Of a stretch of DNA of 64,000 nucleotides, positions 20,031 to 28,504 are shown in pieces (positions within the stretch are counted from its first letter, which is position 1; the number at the start of each line of letters is the position of its first letter). Where the stretch lies: NCBI RefSeq assembly GCF_024223415.1, contig NZ_CP100500.1, one strand, 5' to 3'. A model generated the notes under the pieces. The model was not told where the DNA came from and did no database searches. It worked only from the letters and a program-made list of their open reading frames with translations. This stretch comes from Escherichia coli. Its GTDB lineage: Bacteria; Pseudomonadota; Gammaproteobacteria; Enterobacterales; Enterobacteriaceae. Position numbers and translations under genes: made by a program.

Positions 20031-20306
20031 GTGGCTTCCATTTCCATCAGATGTCCTTCCTGCTCCGCTACTGAAGGCGTGGTGCGTAACGGCAAAAGCA
20101 CTGCCGGACATCAGCGCTATCTCTGCTCTCATTGCCGTAAAACATGGCAACTACAGTTCACTTACACCGCCTCTCAGCCCGGTACGCACCAGAAAATCAT
20201 TGATATGGCCATGAATGGCGTCGGATGTCGCGCCAGTGCACGCATTATGGGCGTTGGCCTCAACACGGTTTTACGTCACTTAAAAAACTCAGGCCGCAGT
20301 CGGTAA
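20031..20306 (+). CDS. insA: IS1 InsA
   Basis: 91 aa, GTG start, CPSC...CSHC zinc finger. Confidence 0.9.
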
Positions 20307-20728
20307 CCTCGCGCATACAACCGGGCAGTGATGTGATTGTCTGCGCTGAAATGGACGAACAGTGGGGCTACGTCGGTGCTAAATCACGTCAGCGCTGGCT
20401 GTTTTACGCGTATGACAGGATACGGAGGACGGTTATGGCGCACGTATTCGGTGAACGCACTCTGGCCACACTGGAGCGTCTTCTGAGCCTGCTGTCGGCC
20501 TTTGACGTGGTGATATGGATGACGGATGGCTGGCCACTGTATGAATCCCGCCTGAAGGGAAAGCTGCACGTAATCAGCAAGCGATATACGCAGCGAATTG
20601 AGCGGCATAACCTGAATCTGAGGCAGCACCTGGCACGGCTGGGACGGAAGTCGCTGTCGTTCTCAAAATCGGTGGAGCTGCATGACAAAGTCATCGGGCA
20701 TTATCTGAACATAAAACACTATCAATAA
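20225..20728 (+). CDS. insB: IS1 InsB (expressed as InsAB' by frameshift)
   Basis: 167 aa; matches IS1 InsB. Confidence 0.9.
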
Positions 20729-20745: not shown

Positions 20746-21432
20746 GAACGAGTACAGGAAAAATTCAGTTCTTTTTTAATTGCCTTTAAAGATGGTGTCA
20801 TCGGAGGGATACTGTCAGGTATTACCACAACGCTGTTAAATATATTCCTGACGACGGAAAGAATGATTGTCCGGCTTATCAGGGAAATGTGGAACAACCT
20901 CGTTCAGGCCTTTAAAGTCCTGGTATTTAACCCGGAGGGATTATCGCCGGGGCAGTTAGCCAAAGCGGTCACTAAACTGATAGCAGCAGGTGTGGCTGTT
21001 GCCGGTGGGGTGATGATAAATGAGGCGATGGCGCAGATCCTTATTTTTCCATTTGGTTCAGAGCTTGCTGCCTTTTGTGGTGCGCTGACGACAGGTATTC
21101 TCGGGCTGGTGATGAATTATTATCTCGAATATAGCGAGGTTATGCAGCGGGTATGGGCATTTCTGGACAAATTTAAGGACAAATTCCAGCGGTCACTGGA
21201 ATACTTTCAGGCAGTCAATGCTGAACTTGATCGCTATCTTGTGGAACTTACTGCACTGGAATTTTCTGTTGATGCTGCCGCGTTAAATCATTTTTCACTT
21301 CATCTGGATAGCGTAAACAGTGAGATAGAGCGCGGACTTCTGCTGAGAGAAGAAGTCAGCCGACGAGGGATTGCGTTGCCGTTTGAGTCAGGAAATGTGG
21401 CTTCTGTTCGTGACTGGTTAAATAAGCGATGA
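20746..21432 (+). pseudogene. 5'-truncated ORF of unknown protein, interrupted by IS1
   Basis: reading frame is open from inside the IS1 right end through to the stop at 21432; first ATG only at 20863. Confidence 0.4.
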
Positions 21433-21695
21433 AATTACACCCTCCATTTCCCTGTAACCAGTGTGGGGCCTGTTGTCGTCATGTCAACAGGGCGGGTGAA
21501 ACGCAATGTCTGGATCGTGGTGACGGTATTTGCCGTCACTATCAGACTGATTCTCATTTGTGTGCAATTTATGATAAACGCCCACAGATTTGCCGGGTTG
21601 AAGACCAGTATTTACTGAATTATCAGTCTCAGTACAGCTGGCAGGAGTTTATTGCATTAAACCAGGCCGCCTGCCTTATTCTGAATAAACTGTAA
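21429..21695 (+). CDS. YkgJ-family cysteine-cluster (CxxCxxCC) protein
   Basis: CNQCGACC ... C..C ... C motif. Confidence 0.65.
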   Translation: MKLHPPFPCNQCGACCRHVNRAGETQCLDRGDGICRHYQTDSHLCAIYDKRPQICRVEDQYLLNYQSQYSWQEFIALNQAACLILNKL

Positions 21696-21834
21696 TGCCA
21701 TTAATGGCGGCGTCAGGACAGAAACTGAGAGAACATAAAACAGTAAAATGTCATTCCGTTCAGCAGCCAGCGTTGCTTTCTCCGGCTGCTGTTATTGTAA
21801 GGCATTTTCGTTAAGAACGCAGAAGGAGAGGATC

Positions 21835-22032
21835 GTGAGATTGCTGTTAAAAGGGCTCGTCGGAATGGCGCTGGTCTGGCTTGTTATTGGTTTCGGGATG
21901 GAGTTATTTTTTCTCGCCGATCGGGTTCATCCGGCATTAAGAGTAATCGTTGGCCTGGGGATGTTATTCCTGATGATAATGATTGCGGGTGGTATGTGCG
22001 GTTCTCTTCTGTCACGAAAGAAAACATCATGA
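21835..22032 (+). CDS. small inner-membrane protein (65 aa)
   Basis: track ORF 21748..22032 trimmed to GTG with GAAGGAGAGG RBS; two hydrophobic helices. Confidence 0.4.
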   Translation: MRLLLKGLVGMALVWLVIGFGMELFFLADRVHPALRVIVGLGMLFLMIMIAGGMCGSLLSRKKTS

Positions 22033-22166
22033 CGTTCCTGTTTACGCCGTTACATTTGTGGCGGCGGATGATACCTGTTTTATGATTATTCAGAAAAATG
22101 TATTTACCTGTCACGGCATGTTCAGCGAGCGGCGCCGGACAGAAATATCGCTTTTACTCAATTATT

Positions 22167-23771
22167 ATGAAAATTAATCTTCCATTCATACACTGGCCAC
22201 GGATTAGCAATGATAAGCGCCTCGTGTTATCAGTGGTTGTCTTTATCCTTTTTAATCTCCTTGTATCCTCAGGAGCGCATCTGATTTACCGGATATTATT
22301 CTTTATCCTGGCGCTTCTTATTATTAAGGCAATGAAATCGCTTACGTTGCGTTTGATTCTTGCCTTCCCGTTCACATTACTGACTGCTGCAGATATCAGT
22401 ATCAGCCTGTATTCATGGTGTACATTTGGCACAACATTTAATGATGGTTTTGCAATCAGTATCCTTCAGACAGATCCTGATGAAGTAATAAGAATGTTCA
22501 GGATGTATGTTGTTTATGTTATCGCATTTATTATCCTCTTTTTATTGTTCTTCTGTTCAGCAATAAATAAAACGTCCTCATTGCCATCGGAAAAGGTCAC
22601 GGTAATTACATTTTTATTGTTAATTACAGTAACGTTATATTCTTCCTTCCAGTTTGCGTTGAAGAAACAGTATCAAATAAATGAAGTTGATCCTTACATA
22701 GTCGCTTCCCGGTTTGCCACATATACCTCTTTCTTTAATCTGAACTATTTTGCACTGGCCGCAAAGGAGCATCAGAGATTAATGACGATTGCTGATACCA
22801 TACCTCACTACGATCTGGTGATTACGGATAACAACACTGACGTATTTGTTCTGGTGATTGGTGAATCTGCAAGGACTGATAACATGTCCATTTACGGGTA
22901 TTCGCGCCCTACCACACCAGAGCTTCAGAAACAGAAATCACGACTGAAACTGTTCACTCAGGCAATCAGCGGGGCACCTTATACCGCTCTTGCGGTACCG
23001 CTGGCATTATCTGCTGATACCGTGCTGCATCATGATGTTCGCCGTTACCCCGATAATATTATCAACATGGCGAATCAGGCGGGGTTCGATACCTGGTGGC
23101 TCAGTGCGCAGTCCGCTTTCCGACAGAACGGAACGGCTGTGGCCAGTATCGCCATGCGGGCCAGAAACAGAATTTATGTCAGAGGCTATGATGAATTACT
23201 GCTCCCACACCTGGCTGAAGCACTGAACAGTAATCCGGGGAGCAGGAAACTGATTGTTCTGCATCTGACGGGCAGCCATGAGCCAGTCTGCAGTAACTGG
23301 CCCAGAGATAAAGCCGTGTTTAAACCGCTGGATACAGAAGAAGTCTGCTACGATAATTCCATTCATTATACCGACAGTTTGTTGGGACAGGTTTTCACCA
23401 TGCTGGAAACGCGTCAGGCATCCGTCATGTATTTTTCAGATCATGGCCTGGAGTATGACCCGACAAAAGAGCATGCCTATTTTCATGGCGGAATAAAACC
23501 CAGCCAGCAGGCTTATCATGTTCCGATGTTTATCTGGTACAGCCCGGCACTGGGAGAGCATGTCGATCGCCAGACGGTGAACAGCGTTTTTTCCACTGCG
23601 TATAATGATTATCTGATTAATGCATGGATGGGCGTAACCAGACCGGCTCAACCGAAAACGCCGGAGGAGGTGATTACCCGCTGGCAGGGGAAATCCGTGG
23701 TTTTTGATGCCAGTCATAACGTGTTTGATTACAAAGTATTACGAAAGAACTTTAATGAACTCCAGGAATAA
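22167..23771 (+). CDS. phosphoethanolamine transferase-like membrane protein (EptA/OpgE-type sulfatase domain)
   Basis: about 5 N-terminal TM helices plus sulfatase-like domain (VIGESARTDNMSIYGYSRPTTP, LHLTGSHEP); start chosen at MKINLPF, alternative 22098. Confidence 0.7.
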   Translation: MKINLPFIHWPRISNDKRLVLSVVVFILFNLLVSSGAHLIYRILFFILALLIIKAMKSLTLRLILAFPFTLLTAADISISLYSWCTFGTTFNDGFAISILQTDPDEVIRMFRMYVVYVIAFIILFLLFFCSAINKTSSLPSEKVTVITFLLLITVTLYSSFQFALKKQYQINEVDPYIVASRFATYTSFFNLNYFALAAKEHQRLMTIADTIPHYDLVITDNNTDVFVLVIGESARTDNMSIYGYSRPTTPELQKQKSRLKLFTQAISGAPYTALAVPLALSADTVLHHDVRRYPDNIINMANQAGFDTWWLSAQSAFRQNGTAVASIAMRARNRIYVRGYDELLLPHLAEALNSNPGSRKLIVLHLTGSHEPVCSNWPRDKAVFKPLDTEEVCYDNSIHYTDSLLGQVFTMLETRQASVMYFSDHGLEYDPTKEHAYFHGGIKPSQQAYHVPMFIWYSPALGEHVDRQTVNSVFSTAYNDYLINAWMGVTRPAQPKTPEEVITRWQGKSVVFDASHNVFDYKVLRKNFNELQE

Positions 23772-23867: not shown

Positions 23868-24143
23868 CTATTTTAATGGATTGTTAATCTTTGCATATTC
23901 AAACGGGCTGATACATTGTTCTCTGTTCGCATCCAGAAAATCTGCCCACCACTGTAGCATCAGTCGACGTTCTTCCAGATGTTCTGCTTTATGGATATAC
24001 GCAGCACGTACACCATTACGCTCCTGATGACTCATCTGACGTTCCACTGCATCGCGGGACCACAAACCTGATTTAATCAATGCACTGCACGCCATCGCCC
24101 GGAATCCATGGCCACAGACCTCTTCCTGCGTATTGTATCTCAT
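23868..24143 (-). pseudogene. 3' remnant of a P4-family tyrosine integrase (C-terminal ~90 aa only)
   Basis: GHGFR...RAAYIH...MLQWWADFLD aligns with the C-terminus of the intact integrase at 27068..28252; 5' two-thirds absent. Confidence 0.75.
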
Positions 24144-24451
24144 CAGTCTCAGTGCGTTATTGACCGTATTTTAACTAACGAGCTTGTGCCTGATTACCAA
24201 TAATTATCAGTTCATATTTTATGCAGACTTGTGCCAATCACTTGTTTTGAAAGAGGTTCTAAGATTCGTTGCATGCATTCTTGACCCTCAATGGTAATGT
24301 CTCGTTAAATATGATAGATATTAGCCGTAATTTTATTTTAGCGGGGTCGGTAAATTGGGGTGGAATTAGTCGATAAAAATATTAGAATACACTATTTTGC
24401 AGGCAAAATAGTGATATGATACATTTTTGTGTAAATTTATAAGGAGATAAG

Positions 24452-25375
24452 ATGGATAAGTTAAGGGCGCTAATTAGCCGAGCATCTAAGCTTTATAACA
24501 GGAATATAGATCATCTTCCAATAACTTTAGAACTAATCGAGTATTCAATGGGGCTTTTGGATAAGAAAGCAAGTTACGGTTATTTTGGTTCATTTGAAGG
24601 GAAAAAAGAAATAGACTACTATGCATTCTTTAGTAATAACGAGATCTCAAGACCTATTAGAGATGATTTATATATCAGAGATGTAAGTATCTATAAGAAA
24701 TTAAGTGACAACTTGTTTGTCGATTTAAAACAGTTCCGTTCTGTCTGGAGTTCAGATAAATCAATAGTAGCAAATAAAATTATATATACATCAGTTATGT
24801 CAGTTGCCTGCGCTTTTGATTTGTGGAAGAAAGGTAGTAGAAAAACACCTGGTACATTTTTTGAGATTTATATTGCTGCTCTATTGAAAGTAATGCTTCC
24901 GAATGAAGTTTTTTCAAAGCATATCCCATTGATTGATTCGATGAAAAATGATGAGGGGCTTAGAGATTCGGCGAATATTTCTACTGATCTGGTAATAAAA
25001 AGCCGCGCAAATGTTAATCGCGGAGTAGTTATCCCATTAAAAATAACAACAAGAGAGCGTATTGTTCAGCCATTTGCTCATCAACGAATTCTGGATTCAT
25101 ATTTTGGGAATGGTTTTTTTCATTCTTTCTTGGCATGCATTAGTGAAACTCAACAAGATAAGTTTAATCGAGAAGTAAACCATATATGTGTTCCTGGAAC
25201 AATACGATTGTATCAGAAATATTTATCAAGTATTGCGGGAATATATTATTGTGATATTCCAGAGAGATATTTACAAGCTGATTTGACCAGTATAATACCG
25301 GTCAAATCAATGGGGGAGTTTTTGTCAGATATAAATGATTTTTTTATGGAAATAGCTGAATCTGATCCTCATTAG
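24452..25375 (+). CDS. unknown 307-aa protein convergent with the C5-methyltransferase; putative Type II restriction endonuclease
   Basis: strong RBS (TAAGGAGATAAG); very AT-rich; 3' end overlaps the MTase 3' end by 32 bp; no nuclease motif recognised by eye. Confidence 0.45.
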   Translation: MDKLRALISRASKLYNRNIDHLPITLELIEYSMGLLDKKASYGYFGSFEGKKEIDYYAFFSNNEISRPIRDDLYIRDVSIYKKLSDNLFVDLKQFRSVWSSDKSIVANKIIYTSVMSVACAFDLWKKGSRKTPGTFFEIYIAALLKVMLPNEVFSKHIPLIDSMKNDEGLRDSANISTDLVIKSRANVNRGVVIPLKITTRERIVQPFAHQRILDSYFGNGFFHSFLACISETQQDKFNREVNHICVPGTIRLYQKYLSSIAGIYYCDIPERYLQADLTSIIPVKSMGEFLSDINDFFMEIAESDPH

Positions 25376-26468
25376 TCTTCTCAACAGGGTTTTGATAGTT
25401 GCTTTTTTCATAATTTTGTTTATTAAGACATTTAATAATTGCTGTTCCTGCCGCTTTAGCTACTGGCGGCGGAACAGCATTCCCAATTTGTAATCTTATG
25501 GCATCTCTTTTACCATAAAACCGATAGTCAACAGGGAATCCTTGTAACATTGCACCCTCTCTAAGAGTTATAGCTCTGTTCTGAGAAGGATGTCCATATC
25601 TGCCTCTGGTGAAGCTATCAAATCCCGCAGTAATTGTTGGACATTGTTTATCCCATTCAAGCCTCCCGTACACGTCAGGCCATCCGCCGGAGTTAGTATC
25701 AACATTTTGATGGCATTTTAGTCTCAAATCATGCGGAATATCCTTCCACCCCCCTCCGGGGGGAACATAAGAGAACCTTTCTTCATTAAGTTTAGTTATT
25801 TTACACTTAATATGATTAGGTATCTCGCAATGTTCACTATAATCGTCAGGAGGGGGAGGAAGATTACCAATAACATCTTTGATAGTAAGTTCGTTATCAA
25901 CTTTCTCCAGTTTAGGATAATCGCAGTTCTCAGATTTATCTATTCCGATCATAATAAAGCGCCCTCTCTTCTGGGCAACGCCAAAATCTGAAGAGCAAAT
26001 GAAAAAAGTGAATATGTTATATTTAAATAATTTCTCTTTTACTTCTCTTATTAAATCCTGTCCTCTCTTTTGTCCAAAAATTTCGACATTTTCAAACAGA
26101 AAAGCCCGGGGGTTTAGCTCATTTACCAGTCTGGAATATTCCAGTACTAACTTATTTCTTTCATCATTTAACAGATGAGCTCCTTTTCTTTGTTTGGAAA
26201 AGCCCTGACATGGCGGCCCGCCGCTAAAAAGATCCAGTCGGGAGTTTATTCCCGCTTTGTCTAAAAGAAACTTACCGCTAATAACCGAAGCATCTAATTG
26301 AAGACAATGCCCTCCAAGATTATTATTATATGTTTTCACGGCATCCTCATTGATATCAAATGCTAATTTGATATCGAACCCCGCTTGCTTAAGCCCAAGG
26401 GACATTCCTCCAGCACCACAGAAGCCTTCAATGCATGTAAGTTTTTGAACAGTATCAGCTTTACTCAT
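25344..26468 (-). CDS. DNA cytosine-5 methyltransferase
   Basis: motif I FCGAGG, motif IV PPCQGFS, motif VI ENV, motif VIII QKRGRF, motif X GNAVPPP. Confidence 0.9.
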   Translation of the reverse strand: MSKADTVQKLTCIEGFCGAGGMSLGLKQAGFDIKLAFDINEDAVKTYNNNLGGHCLQLDASVISGKFLLDKAGINSRLDLFSGGPPCQGFSKQRKGAHLLNDERNKLVLEYSRLVNELNPRAFLFENVEIFGQKRGQDLIREVKEKLFKYNIFTFFICSSDFGVAQKRGRFIMIGIDKSENCDYPKLEKVDNELTIKDVIGNLPPPPDDYSEHCEIPNHIKCKITKLNEERFSYVPPGGGWKDIPHDLRLKCHQNVDTNSGGWPDVYGRLEWDKQCPTITAGFDSFTRGRYGHPSQNRAITLREGAMLQGFPVDYRFYGKRDAIRLQIGNAVPPPVAKAAGTAIIKCLNKQNYEKSNYQNPVEKTNEDQIQLFP

Positions 26469-27067
26469 GTTAACTCACTTAATGCTCATTAATCTTCCTA
26501 GTATAACGATATTTATCAAACAAAACCATAGCTACATTTTAAACTAAAAGTAGCTAATAAGAACGATTGAATGACTTAATTTATATAAATAAGATATCCA
26601 GTATTGATACATCATGTGTTCAGCATGATGTATGTGCAACTGAAGCATCATTCGAAGTTTTCCTCAATATTCATATTCTGCATATATGCTATTCCAGATA
26701 ACTGGCCTGCCATTCGATATTATGACGAAGCCTGATTATGCTAATGCATCATACGCTATAACCCGGTATTTATGGCCACAGATATTTTGGATTGTGTCAT
26801 CTCCTGTAACCTTAAGGGGGGGATTGACGGTGTTTTATCTGCTTGCCCTGTGAGTACATGCATTTCCATAACATTCAGGCTATTTTCACCTACCGGAATC
26901 TGAAGTTCAGTCAGTATGCCTGCAACCTGTTTATGGTGTTGAACAGGGTTCAATAGCAGAATTTGGGCTTCTGGAGTGAGTTCAGAATGTGTTGGTAAAT
27001 CAAGCCACAATAAAACCGTTCAGTGGTCTGACTGGATGGCTCGTTATTATATCCACAGAGCTCTCAT

Positions 27068-28252
27068 TTATAGTGCGCACCTGGAGAGCGAATCAATGTA
27101 ATCTGCGTACCATTGCATCATTTCACGACGACCATCCAGGTACTGCGCATGGTTATAGGTACCCCTGATGGAATTTTTATCCACATGAGCTAACTGCATT
27201 TCAATCCAGGCAGAATTAAAGCCCTGTTCGTGCAGAATGGTACTCATGGTGTGACGAAAACCATGACCGGTTGCCCTGCCATCGTAACCGATACGTTTGA
27301 GCACCATATTGATGCTGGCTTCGCTCATTGGCTTGTTGATATCACAACGTCCCGGAAAAACCAGCCGGTATTGCCCGGAGAAAGTTTTGAGCTGCAGCAG
27401 AATGTCAGTGGCCTGTCGTGACAGTGGTACGACATGTTTACGTCGCATTTTCATGCGGCTTTCAGGGATTGTCCACAGGGCATTATCAAAATCAATTTCT
27501 GACCATTCAGCGAACCGTAGCTCAATGGTTCTGAGACCTGTCAGAAGCAGAAGATTTGTCGCCATGCGGGTAACAGGACTGCCATGATATTCAGCGAGCT
27601 TCCGGATAAAAGCTGGGAGCTCATCTGCTCTCAGGTGAGGGAAATGCGCCGCTTTTGGTGCCGCCAGTGTACTGGTCAGTTCAGATGCCGGATTGACAGT
27701 GGCTCGTCCGGTGGCGATGGCATAACGAAAAATCTGATTACAGTATTGGCGTACCTTACGAAGTTTCTCCAGCGAGCCACGTTTTTCTATGCGGCGCAGA
27801 ATTTCCAGCATTTCCAGCGGGAGGATATCAGTAACGCTTCGTTTGCCCAGATACGGAAAAATATCTTTATCCAGAGCCTCCAGTACGCTTCTGGCGTAAC
27901 TTTCAGACCATGACAAAGATTTATGCTGGTGCCATTCCGTAGCGAGGGCATGGAACGTATTGGTGGCAGAGATTTTCTGAGTGAGTTTTTCCTTTCGCTT
28001 CTTTTCGCCCGGGTCACCACCTTCGGAGATGATTTTTCGGGCATCGTCGCGTTTGATTCTGGCCTCAGCAAGGGAGACGTCGGGATAGACGCCGAGGGCC
28101 AGTTTTTTCTCTTTTCCTGCTATCCGGTATTTAAGCCGCCAGTAGCGGGCTCCCGTGGTTTTTACCAGCAGATATAAACCACGTTCGTCAGAGAGTTTAT
28201 AGTCTTTTTCTTTAGGTCTGGCTGTTTCGACCTGTCTGGCTGTAAGTGCCAT
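27068..28252 (-). CDS. P4-family tyrosine integrase (site-specific recombinase)
   Basis: 394 aa from MALTARQVETA; C-terminal HGFRHT...Y catalytic region; adjacent to tRNA-Phe 3' end. Confidence 0.9.
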   Translation of the reverse strand: MALTARQVETARPKEKDYKLSDERGLYLLVKTTGARYWRLKYRIAGKEKKLALGVYPDVSLAEARIKRDDARKIISEGGDPGEKKRKEKLTQKISATNTFHALATEWHQHKSLSWSESYARSVLEALDKDIFPYLGKRSVTDILPLEMLEILRRIEKRGSLEKLRKVRQYCNQIFRYAIATGRATVNPASELTSTLAAPKAAHFPHLRADELPAFIRKLAEYHGSPVTRMATNLLLLTGLRTIELRFAEWSEIDFDNALWTIPESRMKMRRKHVVPLSRQATDILLQLKTFSGQYRLVFPGRCDINKPMSEASINMVLKRIGYDGRATGHGFRHTMSTILHEQGFNSAWIEMQLAHVDKNSIRGTYNHAQYLDGRREMMQWYADYIDSLSRCAL

Positions 28253-28320
28253 ATGGGGGCTCCTGAAACTGACTGAACACAATGAGCCCCCACCGGTGCC
28301 CCCAATGAACGCTTGATTGA

Positions 28321-28428: not shown

Positions 28429-28504
28429 TGGTGCCCGGACTCGGAATCGAACCAAGGACACGGGGATTTTCAATCCCCTGCTCTACCGACTGAGCTATCC
28501 GGGC
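28429..28504 (-). tRNA. pheV: tRNA-Phe (anticodon GAA)
   Basis: reverse complement reads GCCCGGATAGCTCAGTCGGTAGAGCAGGGGATTGAAAATCCCCGTGTCCTTGGTTCGATTCCGAGTCCGGGCACCA, 76 nt with CCA end; flanked by yqgA-speC. Confidence 0.95.

Follow-up and report, generated by a model that had tools for sequence, protein, structure and literature searches.

The restriction endonuclease Kpn2I cuts T^CCGGA and is a member of the CCGG family of PD-(D/E)XK enzymes (PMC6344858). In this family, the active site follows a permuted PD...K...D/E pattern, whose last residue is a glutamine in Kpn2I, and the CCGG core is read by an R-(D/E)R motif (PMC6344858). Both features are common to NgoMIV, Cfr10I/Bse634I, SgrAI, BsaWI, AgeI, Ecl18kI, PspGI, EcoRII, and PfoI (PMC6344858), enzymes that differ in outer-base specificity and oligomeric state. 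PDB entry 6EKR is the structure of R.Kpn2I (bioRxiv 10.1101/694703).

The Kpn2I system consists of three separately transcribed genes, encoding the endonuclease (R), the methyltransferase (M), and a controller protein (C) (PMC6237814). [quoted passage not shown] Phage restriction by the cloned system has been shown in E. coli (PMC6237814). C.Kpn2I is reportedly required in the prototype to avert toxicity of M.Kpn2I. Near-identical copies of this system from Klebsiella pneumoniae RFL2 are present on small ColE1-type plasmids of E. coli, Klebsiella, Enterobacter, Yersinia, and Pantoea. Klimuk et al. (2018) also described systems that are 68-81% identical to R/M.Kpn2I and have no recognizable C gene, as well as related systems that adjoin tRNA or integrase genes (PMC6237814), so that a variant lacking C is already on record.

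Here, we analyzed a 64,000-nucleotide stretch of an Escherichia coli genome (contig NZ_CP100500.1; the window), in which a pair of genes resembles Kpn2I and its plasmid copies in several respects. R has 64% and M has 80% identity to the respective counterpart, the two genes converge and overlap at their 3' ends, and the R-E-R motif and the active-site residues are the same; the pair also retains the hairpin in the terminal part of R and, ahead of M, the ribosome-binding region TAAGTGAG. Unlike Kpn2I and its plasmid copies, the pair has no C gene, is devoid of the segment that holds the C-box and the strong -35 element, overlaps by 32 bp instead of 17 bp, and is located on the chromosome, adjoining an integrase gene at pheV. 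We read the pair, with a probability of about 0.93, as a Type IIP restriction-modification system that consists of two genes, belongs to the Kpn2I lineage, and forms the cargo of a pheV-integrated islet.

A convergent gene pair under purifying selection

The gene for the 307-aa protein (R; 24452..25375, + strand) and the gene for the 374-aa protein (M; 25344..26468, - strand) both start with ATG, are full length, and have no internal stop codons. They are convergent, and their 3' ends overlap by 32 bp (25344..25375). A Shine-Dalgarno sequence, AAGGAG, is located 5 nt ahead of the ATG of R. R and M have GC contents of 0.33 and 0.39, respectively, and the module as a whole (24383-26590) has 0.355, compared with 0.509 for the whole window. 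The first-pass annotation, which had described two convergent ORFs of this extent with a 32-bp tail overlap, a strong ribosome-binding site for the 307-aa gene, and a higher AT content than in the flanks, was accurate on each of these points.

Homology with an Escherichia albertii locus begins at 24383 and stops at 26590, with 82% nucleotide identity over this interval and 79% and 91% protein identity for R and M, respectively. This delimits the mobile unit, which consists of the two genes plus their short upstream regions, that of R forming the left edge of the conserved module (24383..24451, + strand) and that of M forming the right edge (26469..26590, - strand). Comparison with the E. albertii orthologues gave dN/dS values of 0.14 for R and 0.05 for M, indicating that both genes are under purifying selection. 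The convergent, tail-overlapping order is common to every relative examined. The overlap is likewise 32 bp in E. albertii and in a metagenomic twin of the module, which is 98% identical to it, and 17 bp in the plasmid relatives.

The 3' end of R contains a near-perfect 31-nt palindrome (25279..25309), which is situated 35 nt past the stop codon of M. The stem of this hairpin is conserved in the enterobacterial clade and absent from distant relatives, and compensatory stem changes are found in the Pantoea and K. grimontii copies. When its RNA fold was compared with shuffled controls, z-scores of -5.6 on the - strand, which is the M-sense strand, and of -3.1 on the + strand were obtained. The convergent R and M transcripts may have their 3' ends, or be terminated, at this hairpin.

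Identity of the two proteins

Searches with the 307-aa protein against the Pfam, NCBIfam, and PHROGs profiles yielded zero matches, and for this reason it looked like an orphan; the first-pass annotation had placed it in no recognizable family and had supposed an uncharacterized endonuclease. Its identity was resolved by PADLOC and by a sequence search against the PDB. The PDB search with phmmer matched 6EKR at E=3.7e-126 and about 64% identity over the full length (query residues 1-299 against chain residues 1-298), and at E<=1 this search matched Kpn2I alone and none of the other CCGG-family enzymes. The PADLOC model PDLC03502 (REase_II, "Type II restriction enzyme") matched residues 1-299 at E=6.5e-132, spanning positions 1-299 of its 301. 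A total of 444 homologues were found at E<=0.001, several of which are named type II deoxyribonuclease by NCBI. The exact sequence is deposited there as "type II site-specific deoxyribonuclease [Escherichia coli]", and a near-identical member of its NCBI cluster occurs on 113 contigs. The protein thus belongs to a studied family, one member of which, with a solved structure, is 64% identical to it from end to end.

Aligning the window protein with 19 relatives, with identities down to 40%, showed that the residues E138, T178-D179, K197, R201-E202-R203, Q206, and Q211 are invariant. T178-D179, K197, and Q206/Q211 match the permuted PD...K...Q pattern of the active site, and the complete stretch K197-I-T-T-R201-E202-R203, which includes the recognition motif, is also invariant. 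The 307-aa enzyme is predicted to be a Mg2+-dependent PD-(D/E)XK nuclease of the CCGG family. Catalysis would proceed through D179, K197, and a glutamine, which we infer to be Q206 or Q211, replacing the usual third acidic residue, and the CCGG core would be read by R201-E202-R203 at the end of a helix. Such an enzyme would cut unmethylated sites, as the prototype does at T^CCGGA.

The 374-aa protein was matched by TIGR00675 (dcm) with 146.5 bits, above the cut-off of 100.65, and by the PADLOC model MTase_II at E=3.1e-99. Motifs I (FCGAGG, aa 16), IV (PPCQGFS, aa 85), VI (ENV, aa 126), and X (GNAVP, aa 329) are all present, as is QKRGR (aa 166), and the protein is a cytosine-5 methyltransferase, as its motifs had suggested at first reading. 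PF00145 is recorded for the corresponding protein of the metagenomic twin, which is 98% identical to M. M shares 79.6% identity with the methylase of Kpn2I-type plasmids (CP057300; e.g., E. coli pRHB30-C10_8), and its variable TRD region (residues 186-300) is 86% identical to the methylases of these plasmids. In NCBI, 138 contigs carry the exact sequence, under the name "MULTISPECIES: DNA cytosine methyltransferase [Escherichia]". In the proposed system, this enzyme would methylate the target-site cytosine at C5 on both strands of the host DNA.

Predicted target sequence

Because the TRD of M is 86% identical and R is 64% identical to the Kpn2I-type proteins, the predicted target of the pair is most likely TCCGGA. 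The window contains 6 TCCGGA sites compared with 28.6 expected, and its core part contains 0 compared with 11.1. Avoidance of TCCGGA was considered as evidence of specificity and rejected, since the sites are also depleted in 150 kb from a strain of E. coli that has no such system (27 compared with 61.8 expected), and further CCGG palindromes, for example GCCGGC, are likewise depleted.

A pair of the same family and mechanism might instead recognize a CCGG-containing site other than that of Kpn2I, for example one with a changed outer base pair. R is only 64% identical to Kpn2I, and the CCGG-family enzymes combine a common core motif with different outer bases (PMC6344858), as illustrated by AgeI (ACCGGT), BsaWI (WCCGGW), and Cfr10I (RCCGGY); moreover, the residues with which Kpn2I reads the outer T:A pair are unpublished. 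We consider such a shift unlikely, as the identity of the M TRD to that of the Kpn2I-type plasmid methylases argues against it, the specificities of R and M must co-vary, and TCCGGA is absent from the module itself.

Absence of a controller gene

A tblastn search with the plasmid C protein gave no match near M in the window or in the metagenomic twin; the sole match was to a generic HTH (1719-1847, E=0.004). Between M and the integrase gene (26469-27067), the + strand has no ORF of more than 55 aa. Compared with the three-gene R-M-C arrangement, the locus has the convergent, overlapping R and M genes and lacks the divergent HTH-encoding C gene, with its C-box over the -35 of the M promoter. 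The pair would thus resemble Kpn2I in its enzymology and is not under the control of a C protein.

In an alignment of the M upstream regions, which are diverged non-coding DNA and are the basis of this comparison, the segment containing the plasmid -35 element TTGACC is missing from the window, the metagenomic twin, and E. albertii; a -10-like element (TATACT/TATAAT) is kept, as is the ribosome-binding region TAAGTGAG. Because the strong, C-repressed -35 segment is absent, M is probably expressed from a weaker constitutive promoter, without a C protein. A promoter scan gave no convincing promoter for R or M and no strong sigma-70 match upstream of R. The R upstream region (24383..24451) probably holds a weak promoter, and the lack of a strong match there fits the weak constitutive promoter of R.Kpn2I (PMC6237814). 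A perfect 11-bp palindrome upstream of R (24391-24414) was considered as an operator and discarded, since it is conserved neither in E. albertii nor in the plasmids.

A gene for an HTH C protein, divergent from M, is kept in all plasmid relatives examined, from E. coli, K. grimontii, Yersinia, and Pantoea, and a chromosomal locus of Pseudomonas also has C divergent from M. Other relatives have a classical C-R operon or no C gene. The order R -> <- M <- integrase without C, which is that of the window, was found in a leuX-side islet of E. albertii and in a Halomonas genome. The E. albertii copies are located beside genes encoding proteins with ADH_N, DUF87/HerA, and LptF/LptG domains and the window copy beside pheV. 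In the window, the integrase gene adjoining M is reduced to a remnant, which is followed by a second, intact integrase gene.

Genomic setting and distribution

The intact gene encodes the P4-type tyrosine integrase of the pheV island (27068..28282, - strand; NF007246, E=8.9e-93), and the integration site is the tRNA-Phe gene pheV (28429..28504, - strand; ARAGORN). As in other E. coli, pheV is flanked by yqgA and speC, and yqgA, speC, and nupG are 99% identical to their counterparts. Beginning at 27082, the sequence shows 97.6% identity with the pheV integrase regions of other E. coli. The integrase is a common one, present in many E. coli, and in other strains it accompanies a different cargo, for sugar utilization.

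Integrase remnants lie on both sides of the gene pair. The remnant to the left of R (ORF 23868..24143, - strand) comprises the C-terminal ~99 aa; in a tblastn search, residues 317-415 of the E. albertii integrase matched 23889..24185 with 77% identity (E=1.5e-49). To the right of M, tblastn revealed a strongly degraded 3' fragment (26586..26834, - strand) corresponding to residues 322-400 of the same integrase, with 34% identity (E=3e-8). This fragment occupies the place of the intact, M-adjoining integrase of E. albertii and Halomonas and is at the same distance from M as the stop codon of the E. albertii integrase gene. A second copy of the 3' end of tRNA-Phe, as an att-type direct repeat, was not found in the window with up to 3 mismatches allowed. 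The picture is that of a mosaic of successive pheV islands with eroded junctions.

With megablast, the module had no match in any of 5,426 complete E. coli genomes. In a sensitive search of the same genomes, a related copy (~74% nucleotide identity) was found in two only, in both cases on a small plasmid. The module is rare in E. coli and is present on no chromosome among these 5,426 genomes.

Discussion

The earlier proposal, in which a mobile islet next to pheV carries a Type II restriction-modification system, is borne out by the homology of the 307-aa protein to R.Kpn2I, the match of M to the Kpn2I-type methylases, and the setting; an intact integrase, pheV, and an integrase remnant had been named for it, and all three are in place. 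The same proposal had ranked the pair as the best candidate for an undescribed system in the window, and this did not hold: the system is already known as a Kpn2I-type restriction-modification system, the exact proteins are annotated in NCBI, and relatives without C are described in PMC6237814. As such a system, the pair would restrict incoming phage and plasmid DNA, and it would probably also stabilize the islet by a post-segregational mechanism. Two observations count against reading the pair as a Kpn2I-type system: C.Kpn2I is reportedly needed against the toxicity of the methylase, yet its gene is absent here, and the promoter scan yielded no convincing promoter for either gene.

With some reserve, and as an idea that is rather improbable, we suggest that the integrase-linked lineage without C, formed by the E. 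coli module, E. albertii, and Halomonas, has either adopted another timing mechanism in place of control by C or moved its specificity away from TCCGGA. One possibility for the former would be a constitutive M promoter of reduced strength, together with an action of the conserved hairpin, in the zone of the R/M overlap, on the convergent transcripts. If C has been replaced, or specificity has shifted, the lineage would represent a natural experiment in the establishment of a toxic restriction-modification system without a controller.

A further explanation is that the system is decaying: M would be functional and effectively solitary, and an inactive or unexpressed R would be tolerated after the loss of C. 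The absent C gene, the lack of a consensus promoter upstream of R, the position of the module among integrase remnants in a mosaic island, and the truncated R copies seen in some E. coli assemblies, which may be mere contig-end fragments, are all compatible with this explanation. However, R is full length, retains all family-invariant residues and a strong Shine-Dalgarno sequence, and is under purifying selection (dN/dS of 0.14 in comparison with E. albertii), the R promoter of Kpn2I is itself naturally weak and independent of C (PMC6237814), and the same order of R, M, and integrase without C occurs in E. albertii and Halomonas, so that we regard decay as very improbable. The option of a novel effector associated with the methyltransferase, in place of a restriction endonuclease, had been kept by the first-pass annotation, and the lack of a family for the 307-aa protein in Pfam, NCBIfam, and PHROGs might suggest it. 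This option is practically ruled out by the homology of the protein, at high identity and from end to end, to a restriction endonuclease of solved structure and known biochemistry, and by its conserved CCGG-family catalytic and recognition residues.

Beyond the correct annotation of the two genes as a Kpn2I-type restriction-modification system, the significance of the finding is slight. For the strain itself, the module probably provides protection from DNA with unmethylated TCCGGA sites and helps to keep the pheV islet in place. Given its rarity in E. coli, the module could affect the transformability and the phage host range of those strains that carry it.

Sequence features of the restriction-modification module

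Two sequence elements of the module formed by the Kpn2I-like endonuclease gene R and the convergent cytosine-5 methyltransferase gene M were analyzed. The coding sequence of R contains, at its 3′ end, a near-perfect palindrome of 31 nt (25279-25309; folding z=-5.6), located 35 nt past the stop codon of M. Its stem is kept among the enterobacterial systems of the Kpn2I type, two lineages of which show compensatory substitutions, and is not present in the distant Kpn2I-family members compared. This palindrome may serve as a 3′-end or termination element for the convergent R and M transcripts. At the left module edge, upstream of R, a perfect 11-bp inverted repeat (CACTATTTTGC-AG-GCAAAATAGTG, 24391-24414) is identical in L001, the metagenomic twin of the system. 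A comparison with E. albertii and with the plasmid systems showed no conservation of this repeat, and it is therefore probably not a conserved operator.

In L016, a distant Kpn2I-family locus of metagenome origin, a gene for Vsr (very-short-patch repair) is located at 2188-2634, beside an operon of the controller gene C and R and a convergent M gene. The module in the window has no adjoining Vsr gene.

Frequency of the likely target site

In 35 kb of core sequence (window 28600-64000), TCCGGA was observed 0 times, with 11.1 sites expected. In 150 kb from an E. coli strain lacking the module, the site is also depleted about 2-fold (27 observed vs 61.8 expected), and GCCGGC is depleted far more strongly than TCCGGA (3 observed vs 68 expected). 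The depletion appears to reflect a general palindrome bias of E. coli rather than a footprint of the module.

Genomic context at pheV

Left of the module, an AT-rich stretch encodes, on the + strand, a phosphoethanolamine-transferase-like protein of 557 aa with a sulfatase fold (22098-23771). Models of the EptA, CptA, and MCR families match this protein, all far under their curated cut-offs (best 165 bits vs 500), and L001 carries a relative of the gene in the same position, with 86% nucleotide identity. Three small ORFs of 189, 88, and 94 aa (20863-22032, +) separate the transferase gene from a stretch at 20031-20728, whose two ORFs we take to resemble the IS1 proteins InsA and InsB. None of the three gave a family match above threshold; the 88-aa ORF weakly matches a YcgN-like cysteine cluster (E=0.001).

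The module is bracketed by two integrase gene remnants, one left of R (23889-24185, -), 77% identical to the integrase of the E. albertii islet, and a very degraded one right of M (26586-26834, -), which points to eroded islands in tandem at the pheV locus. The window retains no directly repeated copy of the 3′ end of the tRNA. Comparison of window 27082-28282 with L013 7827-10171, from E. coli GPEC1446, shows the same pheV integrase (97.6% nucleotide identity), and in other E. coli this integrase is accompanied by different cargo, namely an alpha-galactosidase, an MFS transporter, a GH32 hydrolase, and a porin. The cargo adjoining the pheV integrase is therefore exchanged between strains.
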